Assembly (NCBI GenBank): GCA_964513145.1
Contig: CAZELK010000009.1
Coordinates: 1 to 34,897 of the forward strand
DNA from: Candidatus Woesearchaeota archaeon
Lineage (GTDB): Archaea; Nanobdellota; Nanobdellia; SCGC-AAA011-G17; JACPIM01
Direction of reading: 5' to 3'
DNA: 34,897 nt
Each line of letters opens with the position of its first letter. Position 1 is the first letter of the stretch. Positions 10,889 to 17,250 of the stretch are shown here, in pieces. The notes beneath the pieces were generated by a model that saw only the letters and a program-made list of their open reading frames with translations, made no database searches and had not been told where the DNA came from. A program made the position numbers and the translations under genes.

Positions 10889-13207
10889 TTAAAAAAACTC
10901 ATTAGATAAATCTTTCTTGGTAAATTTTATTTCTCCTTTCTTTCCTTTTCCGCCTTTTTTAAGTACAAAATATACTGCTGCTAAAACTATTATAATTAAT
11001 ATTATTAATACAGCCATGCCTGCCCTGCTAGTAGGTTGCTCTGAAGTTGTTGCTGTTTCAGTCTGAATAGTTTCTTGTATTGGAGGTTGAACTACTGGCT
11101 TAATTAAAACATCTACAATTCCATCTGTAATCCCTCTCAATGTTACTATTAGATCATTCTTTCCATCTGCATCCAGGTCAATTTCTTTTGTCTCTCCTAT
11201 TTTCAAAGTTACATCAACTGGTGTTGACTCAAATCTTAAAGTTACTTCTTGCACATTTACTTCCAGGAAAGTTATTGTATGCCTTGTCTCACCATCAAGT
11301 GTAAATGACTTAGATTCACCATTTATACCAGAAATTTTTGCTTCAACTGGTGTTTCATCAGTTCTTTTGCTTAAATCTATATCAGCAATTTTCTCAACTT
11401 CTTCAGCTTCAGAAATCACCAAATCTTCTCCTTCAAAAAAAGCTGAAAATTCCAAAGTTTTTGTTGCTTTTAGCTTGACTTGATCTTCTATTTCACAGGC
11501 TATCGTATATTTGCCAGCCTCACCAGTATCAAAACTGGTAAAAGTAGCTTTGCCATCTAACGGACCTTTTTCAACTTTTCCACCACTTGGTTTAGTTAAT
11601 ATTATCTTAAATGAAACTGGAGAAGTATCATTTGATTCACATGTTGCCTTAATAGAATTTAAAGTTGCTAATCTTGTTTTATCTAAAGTAAAGGACGAAA
11701 TTGTAGGAACTAGCCCATCTAATGTAAAATTAAATCCTGCCCCATTGTTTGATAAATTTTTTATATTGCCTGCTGAATCATTAACAACTAGCATAAAATT
11801 AATTACAACATTATCCTGATAAGTAAATGCTGTACTTCCATTTCCACCAAATAAGAATGACCCATTCCATACAGAGTTGTTATTATTTGCGCTTGATTGA
11901 GTAACTAATCTATTTAATGTTAAGTTTCTAGGATTTAATCTTGTTGTATTTCCTGCACCTGATCTATTATGAGTGCTTGTTTCAGATAAACTTACTACTG
12001 TACCATTTGCTGTCCAATATAATTTAACAGAATCAACATTTGGTTCTGTTATAGTTACTCTAAAGTTTAAGCTGGAATCATTTTTTAAATAGATTGGGCT
12101 TCCTCGTAAAGTACCATTAAGACCATTTAATTCTAAAATTGTTGATCCATCTGTCACATTAAATAAAGAATTGGAAGAAAGATTAAAATTAGGAGTTTTA
12201 CCATCTATAGTTATATTAAATCCAGCCCCGCCATTTGAAAAGTTCTTGATATTGCCAGCAGAATCATTGGCAACTAACATAAAATTAATAGTAGTTCCGT
12301 CAACAAATAATGATAAGTTGGTAATGCCTTCATCACTTCCCCCGCCAACTAAAAAAGATCCATTAAATACTGATGCATTTAGACTTGAAGAAGGCTGAAC
12401 AATTTTATTTAAAGTTAAATTATTAATATTTATTCTTGTTCTAAAATCATTTAAACTGACTGGAGTATTATTAGTCGTCCAAAAAACCCTGACAGTTTCA
12501 ACAAAAGGATCTGTAAGCGTCACTCTTAAAGTTAAATTAGTATTGTTTACAAAATAAGCATTTGCAGTTGCTGTTGAAGTTCCGTTAAGACTTGCTTGCA
12601 AAGGAGTTATTGTTCCATCTGTTATGTTTAATAATGAAAAATTAGGTTGTATTCTGTCTATAGTTAAAGTGATATTTGAAGAATAATTGAAAGTACCTGT
12701 ATTATTGGTTGCTGCTGCACAAGCTATTGAAAAGTTGCCATCACTTAAAGTATTTACACCTGTCCACCCGCCATTTGCATTATAAGTTATAGTACCATTA
12801 GATATTCTAAAGTTTACTGAGTTAGAGGTATTAGTAGCATTAACTTGTAATACTTTAATTGTAAAATTAGAACTGTTTACTACATCATAAGTAGAAGATA
12901 TATTTAACCCAACATATGTGCTATTAAGATTATGATAAAAACTAACATTTGTAATTATAGCTGCTGAACCATTTTCAGGTAATGTTCTGTTATTTGACAT
13001 TTGTGCAGTACATGTAAAATTTAAATTTTCTCCTGTAGTAATATTAAGTTTATTTAATAATCTGCCACCTTCAGTAATATTATTGATTTCAATGCTGTAA
13101 AGACCTTGTGAAATATCCATGCTTTCTCCAGATCCAGCCCAAACAAAGATTACAAATAAGCTAATAAGAATAAAAAAACTACTAAATTGCATTAACCTCT
13201 TATTCAT
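10889..13207 (-). CDS. Membrane-anchored surface glycoprotein with duplicated Ig-like domains
   Basis: N-terminal signal; two ~155-aa repeats ending NDSAGNIKN.SN.GAGFN.T.DG; very many N-x-S/T sequons; DLDADGKND motif; Thr-rich linker; C-terminal TM and basic tail; GGTGA RBS. Confidence 0.8.
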   Translation of the reverse strand: MNKRLMQFSSFFILISLFVIFVWAGSGESMDISQGLYSIEINNITEGGRLLNKLNITTGENLNFTCTAQMSNNRTLPENGSAAIITNVSFYHNLNSTYVGLNISSTYDVVNSSNFTIKVLQVNATNTSNSVNFRISNGTITYNANGGWTGVNTLSDGNFSIACAAATNNTGTFNYSSNITLTIDRIQPNFSLLNITDGTITPLQASLNGTSTATANAYFVNNTNLTLRVTLTDPFVETVRVFWTTNNTPVSLNDFRTRININNLTLNKIVQPSSSLNASVFNGSFLVGGGSDEGITNLSLFVDGTTINFMLVANDSAGNIKNFSNGGAGFNITIDGKTPNFNLSSNSLFNVTDGSTILELNGLNGTLRGSPIYLKNDSSLNFRVTITEPNVDSVKLYWTANGTVVSLSETSTHNRSGAGNTTRLNPRNLTLNRLVTQSSANNNNSVWNGSFLFGGNGSTAFTYQDNVVINFMLVVNDSAGNIKNLSNNGAGFNFTLDGLVPTISSFTLDKTRLATLNSIKATCESNDTSPVSFKIILTKPSGGKVEKGPLDGKATFTSFDTGEAGKYTIACEIEDQVKLKATKTLEFSAFFEGEDLVISEAEEVEKIADIDLSKRTDETPVEAKISGINGESKSFTLDGETRHTITFLEVNVQEVTLRFESTPVDVTLKIGETKEIDLDADGKNDLIVTLRGITDGIVDVLIKPVVQPPIQETIQTETATTSEQPTSRAGMAVLIILIIIVLAAVYFVLKKGGKGKKGEIKFTKKDLSNEFF

Positions 13208-13268: not shown

Positions 13269-13961
13269 ATGGAAAAAGCGCAAAAAATCAACCAAATTTA
13301 CAATATTTTATACAAAAGTTTCGAACCGCAGGGCTGGTGGCCAATTAAAAATAATTATTTTTCTAATGATTTTTCCCATCCGGATTCAGAAGAAGAAATT
13401 TTAGAAATTTGTATCGGGGCAATTTTAACTCAGTCAACAAATTGGAAAAATGCTGAAAAATCATTGCAGGAATTAAATAAATACAAACTTATAGATTTAA
13501 AAAATTTAAGGAAAATAAATACAAGTAAATTAGCTGAAATAATAAAGAGTTCTGGTTACAATAATCAAAAATCCATGAAAATAAAAGAGTTTGTTGAATT
13601 TTTAAATTCAAAAAAAGAAATTACCCGTGAAAATTTATTAAATATATGGGGCGTAGGTCCGGAAACAGCAGATTCAATATTATTATATGCATACAGGCAG
13701 CCATATTTTGTAATTGATGTATACACAAAGAGAATAATGCAAAGGCTCGGATTTAAAGAAAATAAATACGAAGAATTGCAGTTATTATTCATGAATAATT
13801 TAGAAAAAGATTTTAAAATATATAATGAATTTCATGCTTTGTTGGTTGAATTAGGGAAAAAATACTGCAAAAATAAACCATTATGCCAAAATTGTCCATT
13901 GAATAAAATCTGTAAATTCGGTAGCATAGGTAGCATAACCAATTTTGCTGATTCATTTTAA
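13269..13961 (+). CDS. Endonuclease III-related HhH-GPD DNA glycosylase with 4Fe-4S motif
   Basis: GAILTQSTNWKN, LLNIWGVGPETADSIL (HhH), VIDVY, CKNKPLCQNCPLNKIC. ATG at 13269 is the likely start. Confidence 0.85.
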   Translation: MEKAQKINQIYNILYKSFEPQGWWPIKNNYFSNDFSHPDSEEEILEICIGAILTQSTNWKNAEKSLQELNKYKLIDLKNLRKINTSKLAEIIKSSGYNNQKSMKIKEFVEFLNSKKEITRENLLNIWGVGPETADSILLYAYRQPYFVIDVYTKRIMQRLGFKENKYEELQLLFMNNLEKDFKIYNEFHALLVELGKKYCKNKPLCQNCPLNKICKFGSIGSITNFADSF

Positions 13962-14234
13962 GTCTTTGTAAAGTTTGTCCCATATCTCATCTTCCTTGCT
14001 CCATGCTCTTTTCATGCTTTCTTTAGTTAAGGATTTCCAAAATTGTTCTTCATCATCATCGATTTCTTTCAAAACTTCAGATTCTTTTTTCAAAATAATT
14101 TCATTATTTTCTTCTATTATGACTAATGTTGAAGATTCCTTAATGCCCAAATCCTTTCTTATTTCTTCAGGTATAACTATTTGCCCCCTTTCATTGACTT
14201 TGACAGTTCTTATTTTTTTATTCATCTTAATCAT
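13953..14234 (-). CDS. AbrB/MazE/SpoVT-family DNA-binding protein (orphan antitoxin-like)
   Basis: VKVNERGQIVIPEEIRKDLGI; acidic Trp-containing tail (WSKEDEIWD). No toxin follows it. Confidence 0.85.
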   Translation of the reverse strand: MIKMNKKIRTVKVNERGQIVIPEEIRKDLGIKESSTLVIIEENNEIILKKESEVLKEIDDDEEQFWKSLTKESMKRAWSKEDEIWDKLYKDLK

Positions 14235-14366: not shown

Positions 14367-15032
14367 TCAAAAATTAGCTTCGGAATTACCGATTAAGACT
14401 TGACCCTCATAATTATTCCACAGAACCTGTAGCCAACCAATAGCGCCAGGCTCTTCTTTATTCTTCATTTCTAAAACCTTTTTCATATTTTCTATCATAA
14501 ATTTTTTAGATTTTTCATGTGCTCTAAATGTATAATCTCCATTTATTAAAAATTTCATAAGTTCATTTGATGGCTCCAAAAAAAGGCTTGCCGTCTTATC
14601 TTTTGAAGGCGTGGCTGAATATCTATCATCTATCCAAAAAGAGAAAGGAGTAGTATAGCCTATAAAACATCCTTCATTATCTTTTACCATAACTTTACCA
14701 AAATTTACTCCTGCGTGGCATGCTCTAGCATACACAATTTTATCTTTTAATAAATGAATATTCTTATCTATCGAGAAAATAATTTCTCCGTTATGTCCTT
14801 CTAAAGAAGAACTACTTCCATGACCATTAATAAGAACTAATTTGGGGTCTTTTTTACGAACAAACTTTTCAACATTTTCAGAATTTGCTTTTTCACCTTC
14901 AAAATCTGTAATATCTATTCCTAATTTTTTTGCCTCTTTAATTATCAATAAAGAATAGTAACAAAGGTATTCAGTACCATCGTCATACTTGGGTCTTGTA
15001 ATCAGAACAATTTTATTATTCATTTGATTCAT
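14367..15032 (-). CDS. Putative clan CD (caspase/gingipain C25-like) cysteine peptidase
   Basis: Hydrophobic strand + NGHG (LVLINGHG), hydrophobic strand + AC (IVYARACHAG), then CFIGY: the order and spacing of the caspase-hemoglobinase His-Cys dyad. No signal peptide. Confidence 0.65.
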   Translation of the reverse strand: MNQMNNKIVLITRPKYDDGTEYLCYYSLLIIKEAKKLGIDITDFEGEKANSENVEKFVRKKDPKLVLINGHGSSSSLEGHNGEIIFSIDKNIHLLKDKIVYARACHAGVNFGKVMVKDNEGCFIGYTTPFSFWIDDRYSATPSKDKTASLFLEPSNELMKFLINGDYTFRAHEKSKKFMIENMKKVLEMKNKEEPGAIGWLQVLWNNYEGQVLIGNSEANF

Positions 15033-15270
15033 TTATGGTTTCTATTAATTTACCGCTTGTTAATGCTCGTATAAAACTCATTTGCATATCTATTATTTGT
15101 AAGCCAATATCATCCCCTTTTTGGATATGTTCCATCAATTGAGATTTATTGAATGTTCCCTTATCCCCTATAGAAAGTTTAAAATTTGGAGGCATAATTT
15201 CCATTCTAGCCAAAATCAATTTTTGTAATTCGGGAGTTATTTTTTTCCTTTCTTCTTTTTCTTTGTTCAT
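15016..15270 (-). CDS. Small hypothetical protein (84 aa), operon partner of the peptidase
   Basis: Overlaps both neighbours and shares a gap-free motif with 15267-15461. Confidence 0.75.
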   Translation of the reverse strand: MNKEKEERKKITPELQKLILARMEIMPPNFKLSIGDKGTFNKSQLMEHIQKGDDIGLQIIDMQMSFIRALTSGKLIETINESNE

Positions 15271-15461
15271 ATTATTTCTAGCTCTTTGAGAGTATTTAAA
15301 ATTTTTCTGCCTTTTTCTGAATTACTTTTTATCTCAAAATATGCAACATTCCAAGTATAGGGTTTGTCATCAATTACTGCAATAATATCCTCATTTCTGA
15401 CTTTTTCAGGCAAGTTAGAGAAAATCTTAAAAAACTTAACCCTTGATTCTTCAAAATTCAT
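15267..15461 (-). CDS. Small hypothetical protein (64 aa), first gene of the three-gene operon
   Basis: ATGA overlap with the next gene; TATA-like TTTAAATATATAAA upstream. Confidence 0.75.
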   Translation of the reverse strand: MNFEESRVKFFKIFSNLPEKVRNEDIIAVIDDKPYTWNVAYFEIKSNSEKGRKILNTLKELEII

Positions 15462-15635
15462 AATTATTTTCCATTATTTATATATTTAAAGATTATTATA
15501 TTTATTGCAATGTAGACAGAAATTATTGTACAAGAAAACAACTAGTTTTTATGCAAAGCACTTTGCCCCATGCTCAAAGATTCTTAATTCTGCATAATAG
15601 GTCTGATTTTTTATGTACTTATCAAACAAAGTCTG

Positions 15636-16061
15636 TTATTTTCTTTTTGGAATAAAATTCATAAGAACACCATTTTTACAATATCCGCAACCCAAAAAAT
15701 CATCCTCATTTTTAACTATAACCCATCCTTTTTTATTTAAATCACATTCTAAATTACTTCCATTTAGCCATTCTTCTTTTTTATTGATTTCTAAAACATT
15801 TTTAGTTGCCTTGCTTCCAATTAACTGCGTTCCAGAAATGCTCAGTCTTATTCCGCTTTGTTCAATCTTGCCAAAATACAACCCAAAAGAATTTACATTA
15901 AACCTGCTTAAATCTACTTTAGCTAAATCCTTTGTAATCAAAAAAATTTTATTGTCTTTATTTTTATAAAATAAACAGTCTAATTCTAAAGTTTTTATGC
16001 CAAACTGATTTTTCAGTTGTTCTAAAATTGTTTTTGTTTCTCTATTATTTAGATTAATCAT
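15636..16061 (-). CDS. RsmF/NOL1-NOP2-associated PUA-like ribosome-biogenesis protein
   Basis: FGLYFGKI...IRLSISGTQLIG...WLNG...GWVIVK...LGCG...NFIPK resembles the stand-alone C-terminal domain of RsmF/YebU. Confidence 0.7.
   Translation of the reverse strand: MINLNNRETKTILEQLKNQFGIKTLELDCLFYKNKDNKIFLITKDLAKVDLSRFNVNSFGLYFGKIEQSGIRLSISGTQLIGSKATKNVLEINKKEEWLNGSNLECDLNKKGWVIVKNEDDFLGCGYCKNGVLMNFIPKRK
16026..16050. repeat. 25-bp direct repeat, copy 1 (copy 2 at 18788-18812)
   Basis: AATTGTTTTTGTTTCTCTATTATTT is identical at both sites; it encodes NNRETKTI on the minus strand. Confidence 0.8.
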
Positions 16062-17250
16062 TTAACAGCCATTTCCAAACAGGTATAATTTTTATATTAT
16101 TTAATCTGTCTTCCTGATTTAAAGTAATCATTATTCCATTATTAATTTTTAATTTAGACATGGCTTCTTTTATTCCATTAATTTCTCTCTCTTGATTTTC
16201 CTCATTAATTTCCAAACAAACTTGAATAGCTTGTATTGCTTTTCCCTTGTCTTTTATAATAAAATCGCACTCATTTTTCTCCCTGAAATAAAATATTTCT
16301 TTATGCTTCCTTCTTAAATTTAAAAAAACAATATTTTCAAGCATTTTTCCTTTATCATCTGAGAAAGAGACAGAATTAACATTGGAAAAACCATTGTCTA
16401 TAGAATAAACTTTTTTTGGATTGATTTGCTGTTGTTTATAGGAATAACTAAACCTGGGAATTGTAAATATTAAATAAGCATTTTCCAAATAAAAAATATA
16501 GTCTATAACACTTTGTACAGATTTTATTTTAAACATGTTTTTTATAGAATTATAAGAAAATTCCTTTCCAACATTGCTTATAAGAAAAATTGCAATTTTG
16601 ATCAGGATGCTAGTATTTTTTATTCCAAATCTTACTGCTATGTCTTTCATTATTACATCAGAAAGTAACTCATTGAGTATAGCTGGATTATTATTTTTTA
16701 AATATTCGGGAAATCCCCCCTTAACCAGATACTCTTCAATAAATTTAACTGATGGATTTTCATTTTTAAAACTCAGAAATTCTTTGAATGAAAATGGAAA
16801 TAATTCGCTTTGTAAATGTCTGCCCGTTAATTTCGTGCCAAGCTCTCTGCTTAAAAGCGAAGCATTTGAACCAGTTATAATAATCTTTTCTTTTTTATCA
16901 ACTAAATATCTGATAAATTTTTCCCATTTGTCAATATTTTGTATTTCATCAAAAAAATAAATACCATTTTCGCCATATAACTCTGTTATTATTACTTCTA
17001 CCTTGTTAAAATCAGTTAATTCAAATCCATCCAGTCTGGGATCCTCTAAATTTAAATAATACCAATTTTTTTGTTTTCTCGATATTTGATTTAAAAAAGT
17101 GCTTTTTCCGCATCTTCTTACTCCAGTTATCAAAACAGCGAAAGAATCAGATATCTCAATATTATTTTCTCTTAAAATTCCAAGATCCAAATTATTCAGA
17201 AATTCTCTTTGAGAGATTATTATTTCTTTTAAAATATCCTTTGAAATCAT
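16054..17250 (-). CDS. AAA+ superfamily ATPase (COG1373)
   Basis: GVRRCGKS, YFFDEIQ, ITGSNA, YLVKGGFPE, KVYSIDNG, LENIVF, ECDF, PVWKWLL. Confidence 0.9.
   Translation of the reverse strand: MISKDILKEIIISQREFLNNLDLGILRENNIEISDSFAVLITGVRRCGKSTFLNQISRKQKNWYYLNLEDPRLDGFELTDFNKVEVIITELYGENGIYFFDEIQNIDKWEKFIRYLVDKKEKIIITGSNASLLSRELGTKLTGRHLQSELFPFSFKEFLSFKNENPSVKFIEEYLVKGGFPEYLKNNNPAILNELLSDVIMKDIAVRFGIKNTSILIKIAIFLISNVGKEFSYNSIKNMFKIKSVQSVIDYIFYLENAYLIFTIPRFSYSYKQQQINPKKVYSIDNGFSNVNSVSFSDDKGKMLENIVFLNLRRKHKEIFYFREKNECDFIIKDKGKAIQAIQVCLEINEENQEREINGIKEAMSKLKINNGIMITLNQEDRLNNIKIIPVWKWLLND

Follow-up and report, generated by a model that had tools for sequence, protein, structure and literature searches.

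Proteases of the caspase fold are increasingly recognised as executioners in prokaryotic immunity: CHAT proteases serve in cyclic-oligonucleotide-based antiphage signalling systems (CBASS) and in type III CRISPR, and others activate gasdermins. The known examples are large, sensor-fused proteins from well-studied bacteria. Securin and cystatin also show, as a concept, how a protease of the same clan, clan CD, can be gated by a small pseudosubstrate or inhibitor that has a gene of its own. We analysed a stretch of 34,897 nucleotides from Candidatus Woesearchaeota archaeon (contig CAZELK010000009.1, the whole of which is called the window here), AT-rich at about 27-30% GC, and found that it carries a compact cassette of three genes, p64, p84 and p221, in which two small proteins precede a predicted clan-CD cysteine protease. 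Both the clan-CD family and its three-gene architecture are new, and the logic of the cassette resembles that of toxin-antitoxin (TA) or defence modules.

The cassette is read from the minus strand, and its features, from the upstream end, are these:

15475-15505, minus strand: AT-rich, TATA-like region, read off the sequence as a candidate archaeal operon promoter, 14-45 nucleotides upstream of p64
15267-15461, minus strand: p64, the first gene, an open reading frame (ORF) of 64 amino acids (aa) encoding a small soluble protein with no family match
15016-15270, minus strand: p84, the second gene, an ORF of 84 aa encoding a small soluble protein for which an AlphaFold2 model was made
14367-15032, minus strand: p221, the third gene, an ORF of 221 aa encoding a predicted minimal cytoplasmic cysteine protease of clan CD (CHAT/gingipain-like)
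14820-14822, minus strand: codon of His71 (motif NGHG), the predicted catalytic histidine, invariant in homologues and directly after strand 65-69 of the model
14718-14720, minus strand: codon of Cys105 (motif YARAC), the predicted catalytic cysteine, invariant in homologues and directly after strand 99-103 of the model

A preliminary description of this DNA had proposed three overlapping genes of 64, 84 and 221 aa at this place, and the ORFs are there. The junction of p64 and p84 is an ATGA in which the stop of the first gene is shared with the start of the second. The overlap of p84 with p221 measures 17 nucleotides from the first methionine codon and 8 from the second, at 15023; the latter is likely to be the true start of p221 because the N-termini of its homologues match it. 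A scan for bacterial-type (sigma-70) promoters upstream of p64 gave nothing better than shuffled sequence. None of the three proteins has a transmembrane (TM) segment or a signal peptide, the maximum 19-aa hydropathy being below 0.9 in all three, in agreement with what had been claimed for the 221-aa protein.

The conservation of the triplet, which the preliminary description had named as a check, is borne out. When 185,579 species genomes were scanned by pattern, 74 loci came up whose record titles name Pacearchaeota, Woesearchaeota, Nanoarchaeota, Aenigmatarchaeota, Micrarchaeota, Nanohalarchaeota, Parvarchaeota and Altiarchaeota, together with several metagenome-assembled genomes (MAGs) labelled Methanosarcinales or Euryarchaeota and three bacteria of the candidate phyla radiation (CPR; Staskawiczbacteria and Liptonbacteria). 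Homologues of p64 and p84 were found with iterated hidden Markov models (HMMs) built from the first loci. The order p64-p84-p221 on one strand is kept in about 70 loci, essentially every one with enough upstream DNA. The first two genes overlap by 4 nucleotides at 67 of 80 junctions; p84 and p221 do so at 33 of 79, and the rest lie within a few nucleotides of one another. The genes closest to the cassette vary greatly: they encode tRNA-guanine transglycosylase, tyrosyl-tRNA synthetase, phosphoribosyl pyrophosphate synthetase and ribosomal protein S8e as well as MNT, Bro-N, Fic, PIN-like, DUF3800 and PD-(D/E)XK proteins, and neither a conserved fourth gene nor an integrase is among the neighbour families listed. 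Because the gene order is kept, the neighbours are diverse and there is no conserved fourth gene, we regard p64-p84-p221 as an autonomous unit, a self-contained and translationally coupled cassette.

A survey of 61 related genomes gave the same picture. Of 12 matches to p221, one (L012, genome G048) was discarded as a false positive that carries a PIG-L/LmbE-type motif by eye and one (L011) was set apart as a distant subfamily; all 10 of the remaining core-family genomes also carry both small genes. The L011 locus (1184-2259, genome G005) comes from the same family as the organism of the window. It encodes a 255-aa caspase-like protein with His and Cys motifs and a hydrophobic C-terminal tail, preceded by one small protein of 103 aa and flanked by putative membrane proteins. 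This distant subfamily may be an ancestral form with a single partner.

The AlphaFold2 model of p221, built on a 111-sequence alignment, has a pLDDT of 95.9 and a pTM of 0.92. By VIA its best match is the CHAT domain of SAVED-CHAT (PDB 8tl0_A; Z 16.2, root-mean-square deviation 2.8, 178 residues aligned), and it also matches RgpB (Z 14.9), Kgp (14.6), legumain (14.0), metacaspase-4 (13.6), separase (11.4-13.0), MALT1 (12.2) and GPI8 (12.1). The top 34 VIA rows, with Z from 8.9 to 16.2, all have the caspase-hemoglobinase fold; they are clan-CD peptidases and the non-catalytic proteins c-FLIP and Raptor. Foldseek agreed, at E of about 1e-5, with 48 matches at E<=1e-3 and clan CD throughout among the matches listed. 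The model thus gives p221 the clan-CD caspase-hemoglobinase fold, and the stand-alone caspase-fold protein of the preliminary description stands.

In the model, strand 65-69 is followed by N-G-H71-G and strand 99-103 by A-C105; a His and a Cys each placed directly after consecutive core strands is the canonical arrangement of clan CD. These are the LVLINGHG and IVYARAC segments in which a His-Cys dyad had been suspected. His71 and Cys105 are invariant in 111 of 111 database homologues and in 80 of 80 homologues derived from genomes. The residues N69-G70-H71-G72, A102, C105, F123-I124-G125-Y126, P154-S155 and N207 are invariant in the 111-sequence alignment. Among the 80 genome-derived proteins, CPR bacterial copies included, D145 is fully conserved and position 17 is always D or E. 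The two acidic residues suggest that p221 may prefer a basic residue at P1, for which the pockets of MALT1, metacaspases and gingipains provide the precedent.

A word-indexed search found 281 relatives of p221, of about 217 aa and 45-67% identity, all of them unnamed proteins whose named sources are Pacearchaeota or Nanoarchaeota. In a profile search of 1.84 billion cluster representatives the family comprised 1,884 clusters at 50% identity with E<=1e-3, 879 with E<=1e-10 and 277 with E<=1e-30. The best 150 matches are all of 246 aa or fewer, most of about 215 aa, and no fused form, with TPR or otherwise, is among them. Searches of Pfam, NCBIfam, PADLOC and PHROGs with p64, p84 and p221 gave nothing above noise, in line with the earlier failure to match the cassette to a named defence system. 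The CHAT profile (PF12770) does not match p221 at E<=1 and is absent from the 25 most-matched families across the 111 members; Peptidase_C25 (PF01364) matches 5 of the 111, with a best E of 0.013, far below its gathering threshold; and the profile of Peptidase C14 (caspase/metacaspase) does not match p221 and is not among the families listed for the 111 members, the structural Z of 10-13.6 nonetheless. The p221 family profile found no relative among the sequences of solved structures. Since the CHAT, C25 and C14 profiles do not recognise it and no solved protein is related to it by sequence, while its modelled fold is that of clan CD, p221 is best described as an orphan clan-CD family reduced to the catalytic domain.

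The comparison with described proteases is closest for the CHAT group, which includes p221's best structural match, SAVED-CHAT (8tl0), along with Csx29 of type III-E Craspase and the anti-sigma protease DdvA, these last two at Z 8.7-12.4. The placement of the His/Cys dyad, the cytoplasmic location and the setting of prokaryotic conflict are common to both. However, p221 has no fused sensor (SAVED, TPR or TM); it is a bare catalytic domain of about 215 aa that comes with two dedicated small proteins. Type III-E Craspase is set apart by its association with gRAMP/Cas7-11 and its TPR-fused CHAT, since no Cas gene is among the neighbour families listed for the p221 cassette and no TPR fusion among the best 150 matches to p221. 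The gingipains RgpB and Kgp resemble p221 in the spacing of His and Cys (34 residues in p221 and 33 in gingipains), and the conserved Asp residues of p221 would be compatible with Arg/Lys specificity. Gingipains are secreted multidomain proteins with a prodomain in cis, Ig-like domains and a signal for type IX secretion, whereas p221 is cytoplasmic and single-domain with no hydrophobic N-terminus, and any inhibitory partner would have to act in trans. Separase (family C50) with securin and legumain with cystatin share the clan-CD fold with p221, but they belong to the eukaryotic cell cycle or the lysosome, and p64 and p84 are unrelated to securin or cystatin by sequence or fold.

The two small proteins have features in common. 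The p64 family conserves P18-x3-R22 (K/R in 100%), an invariant W37 and G51; the p84 family conserves P27-x3-K31 (K/R in 92%) and an invariant G56. Both families thus have a conserved proline four residues before a basic residue, and P18 and P27 confirm the conserved proline that the preliminary description had seen in each protein. The AlphaFold2 model of p84 (pLDDT 86.4, pTM 0.70) consists of a helix, a beta-hairpin and three helices, and in it K31 opens the hairpin after an exposed loop. No fold in the PDB or the viral library matches p84 above noise (best VIA Z 4.8, best Foldseek E 0.56 and 0.31). Neither the p64 nor the p84 profile has a significant match among the sequences of solved structures, and the rows returned for p84, all non-significant, are OmpR, sigma-E, S100 and one designed protein.

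The homology of the small proteins to each other, claimed in the preliminary description, is supported at the level of the families and not by the single pair, which gave no BLASTP alignment (E>100). The probability that hhalign assigns falls from 24% when each family is represented by 12 sequences to 5% when about 75 are used, although hhalign and MAFFT both return the register that had been proposed earlier. The p84 HMM scores at least 5 bits on 41% of p64 sequences, compared with 1.0% of shuffled sequences and 0.3% of a background of 2,014 small ORFs from the same loci, and the p64 HMM does so on 18.5% of p84 sequences, compared with 1.4% and 0.3%; the sequences within each family are related, so that these fractions overstate independence. 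Intermediates support the link: the single small protein upstream of the L011 protease matches both the p64 and the p84 HMMs (per-comparison E 1e-5 and 3e-4), as does a 76-aa orphan in L092 and L095 (1.4e-18 and 6.7e-4). Judged on the families, p64 and p84 are probably paralogues. In L032 the two genes lie in one frame with a single TAA between them.

The cassette is accessory and patchy in its distribution. Of 401 high-quality genomes sampled evenly from the phylum, 32 carry p221 (E<=1e-10); they represent 30 of 281 genera and have one to three copies each. A maximum-likelihood tree was made from 70 p221 homologues, with taxon labels that are the submitters' and noisy. It needs 22 changes of label, where shuffling gives a mean of 24.3; the CPR bacteria form one clade (support 99/95), and the copies from Altiarchaeota are nested among those from DPANN archaea. 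Since taxon labels are scrambled on it, the tree points to horizontal spread that involves DPANN archaea, Altiarchaeota and CPR bacteria. One locus (L041, 137-2520), where the contig ends within the upstream part of the first cassette, has two tandem p221 genes from different deep clades. Their placement suggests that they were inserted independently at a single hotspot and did not arise by duplication. Seven loci (L027, L038, L043, L049, L054, L064 and L082) come from MAGs titled 'uncultured Methanosarcinales archaeon', and their p221 copies nest among those of DPANN archaea; these labels may be mis-assigned or the contigs mis-binned. Relatives of p221 were absent from phage and plasmid records in tblastn searches, p64 was absent from phage records, and a scan of viral contigs was empty. 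The ESM Atlas yielded nothing but unnamed clusters. A p64-like one among them is labelled mostly Uroviricota, but the empty tblastn and contig searches leave that viral link unsupported.

Decay of the cassette is seen at several loci. Four further genomes among the 61 relatives have matches to the small genes only, and six small-gene regions (from three of these genomes and from G004) hold remnants or lone small genes. In L093 p84 is followed by an internally deleted p221 of 74 aa; in L094 p64 is followed by the N-terminus of p84 fused to unrelated sequence; lone small genes are found in L090-L092, L095 and L096. The p221 gene is split in L003, L078 and L086. A 117-aa ORF in L074 (5811-6164), 1.4 kb upstream of an intact cassette, joins the N-terminus of p64 to the C-terminal helices of p221 and is a deletion remnant. 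The genome from which the window comes (G000) has a start-less p64-like frame of 57 codons (profile E 3e-20) on contig C5 (27888-28055; L089, 3886-4059, minus strand). It has no p84 or p221 alongside and sits between a winged-helix and nucleotidyltransferase-like pair and an RtcA-like gene, as judged by eye; it is probably what remains of a lost second cassette.

Small genes also occur in other company. In L091 (3904-4349; contig C16 of G060) a p64 homologue overlaps by 4 nucleotides the gene that follows it, which encodes an 89-aa protein with two CxxC pairs in place of p84 and p221; zinc-ribbon-like by eye, this protein could be an alternative partner of p64. The 76-aa p84-like orphans of L092 (2595-2825, G060) and L095 (3582-3812, G031) are identical though they come from different genomes, and both adjoin the same pair of genes, a nucleotidyltransferase and a winged-helix gene by eye. 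The shared block suggests a recent transfer.

Clustering of all ORFs within 6 kb of the cassette identified the neighbours that recur: MNT nucleotidyltransferases at 22 loci, HEPN at 14, Bro-N at 9, Fic/DOC at 6, AAA_14/DUF4143 at 4, and NYN, ORF6N, RadC-JAB and DUF2779 at three each. MNT genes have a density of 0.095 per kb within 1.5 kb of the cassette and 0.013-0.049 per kb further out. We consider the association with variable or TA islands to be moderate, on figures that come without a genome-wide null. Neither CRISPR (Cas) nor cyclic-oligonucleotide genes are among the neighbour families listed, CRISPR arrays not having been searched for; nor is a gasdermin, and p64 and p84 have no Pfam match.

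In the window itself the cassette is flanked by an AbrB/MazE-like gene (13953-14234), an endonuclease III homologue, a PUA-domain protein and three AAA_14/DUF4143 ATPases, so that its position between the AbrB gene and the ATPase cassettes is as originally described. The AbrB gene was rejected as a component of the cassette: it is set off by an intergenic region of its own, and other loci do not keep it beside the cassette. Elsewhere the window encodes surface proteins and has housekeeping genes (glutamyl-tRNA synthetase, adenylosuccinate lyase). On the minus strand at 15636-17250, the gene of a 141-aa PUA/pre-PUA (NIP7-like) protein overlaps by 8 nucleotides the end of the gene for an AAA_14/DUF4143 ATPase, which matches the PADLOC candidate system PDC-S01 (E 2e-113) and of which the PUA protein may be a partner. 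A 772-aa protein encoded at 10889-13207, also on the minus strand, has an N-terminal signal-like segment, a C-terminal TM anchor and a sequence extremely rich in N-x-S/T sequons, and is probably a heavily glycosylated surface protein.

What the cassette does may be approached through type II and tripartite TA systems, of which HEPN-MNT, found beside it, is an example. The small genes precede the enzyme gene, as they do in type II TA operons, and overlap with it in a compact operon; like those systems the cassette is autonomous, patchy, mobile, multi-copy, horizontally transferred, often decayed and clustered with TA genes. It differs from them in that p64 and p84 match no antitoxin family. To our knowledge no TA toxin is a clan-CD protease, and none turned up in the literature searched. 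Bacterial gasdermin systems resemble the cassette in placing a caspase-fold protease beside its presumed substrate, with regulated death as the proposed outcome, but p64 and p84 are far shorter than gasdermins and have no membrane-active signature.

We propose, at a confidence just short of even, that the cassette is a protease-based TA or abortive-defence module whose protease is gated by p64 and p84, acting as pseudosubstrates or substrates. In this model p64 and p84, probably ancient paralogues, would be made in step with p221 and would bind it. Each would present its P-x3-[Lys/Arg] loop to an acidic S1 pocket formed with D17 and D145, and the loop would act as a pseudosubstrate inhibitor or as a sacrificial substrate. 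Under stress or infection, for example, the small proteins might be lost, cleaved or outcompeted; p221 would then be free to cut cellular targets after basic residues, and the cell would arrest or die. Such gating would be analogous to the hold of securin on separase and of the gingipain prodomain on RgpB. A module of conflict also fits the way the cassette is distributed: patchy, multi-copy, decaying, horizontally spread and found beside TA-type genes.

Several observations weigh against this proposal. The basic P1 specificity and the pseudosubstrate role are deduced from the positions of conserved residues. Known folds of inhibitors, antitoxins and DNA-binding proteins do not match the model of p84. 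PADLOC (PADLOC-DB 2.0) has no match to p64, p84 or p221 at E<=1, a result that leaves the defence reading open; its PDC-S01 model matches only the AAA_14 ATPases next to the cassette. The association with defence islands, as first suggested, stands in part: MNT/HEPN, Fic and Bro-N genes recur nearby, but a TA-type neighbour lies within 3 kb at only 26 of 65 loci, many of the neighbours are housekeeping genes, and MNT/HEPN pairs are abundant in archaea generally. A stronger form of the proposal, which we offer as tentative and rather doubtful, is that the cassette is an immune or addiction system not recognised before, perhaps simpler than any other known module for regulated death of the caspase type: a bare executioner gated by two paralogous pseudosubstrates and exchanged between archaea and bacteria among ultra-small episymbionts (DPANN and CPR). 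No description of such a module was found in the full-text literature, subscription journals being outside its coverage.

The same gene order would suit a switch of the ImmR/ImmA kind in a mobile element, where p64, p84 or both would be small repressors or regulators that p221 would cleave to derepress neighbouring genes of the element. The small genes are upstream of the protease gene and co-translated with it, antirepressor-type genes (Bro-N and ORF6N) recur in the vicinity, and p84 has a weak and non-significant resemblance to OmpR-type winged-helix proteins and to sigma region 4 (E 0.36-1.6). However, no integrase or element core gene recurs and the cassette is often beside housekeeping genes; the PDB is rich in helix-turn-helix (HTH) and winged-helix folds, yet none matches the p84 model above Z 3.6; Pfam yields no HTH match; and viral, phage and plasmid records hold no relatives. 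We consider a switch of this kind unlikely.

It is somewhat less likely again that p221 is a dedicated processing or ligation enzyme that matures, cyclises or conjugates p64 and p84, the products being the functional molecules. Clan CD does contain transpeptidases, namely legumain/asparaginyl endopeptidase (AEP), GPI8 and PorU; AEP ligases and the glycosylphosphatidylinositol transamidase are among the fold matches of p221 (Z 12-14), and the protease co-occurs strictly with a pair of conserved small proteins in which a basic site is conserved. Against this, the cassette encodes nothing for transport, immunity or modification, p64 and p84 are soluble folded domains and not leader-core peptides, and the patchy and decaying distribution is a better fit to a selfish module.

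A role free of conflict, in which p221 is an ordinary protease of proteostasis or regulation with host targets and p64 and p84 are its adaptors, would sit well with the high conservation within the family (45-67% identity) and with the many housekeeping neighbours; a gene found in only 8% of the sampled high-quality genomes, at one to three copies, with pseudogenised remnants and a tree that is incongruent with taxonomy, makes us give this role a slim chance. That p221 is a non-catalytic scaffold, and the role of the cassette non-proteolytic, is scarcely credible: pseudo-proteases of this fold exist, and c-FLIP and Raptor are among its matches, but His, Cys and the flanking Gly/Ala residues are invariant across more than 190 sequences, which would be unexpected of a pseudo-enzyme.

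On our preferred reading, that of a protease-based TA or defence module, the cassette would add a new class of effector to TA biology and would provide a minimal and tractable model of a caspase-like protease restrained in trans. The bare catalytic domain forms a family of its own, of about 1,900 clusters, that has been invisible to Pfam, NCBIfam, PADLOC and PHROGs, and it is found in DPANN and CPR hosts, whose defence and addiction repertoires are poorly known. The apparent transfer of the cassette between episymbiotic archaea and bacteria is noteworthy by itself.

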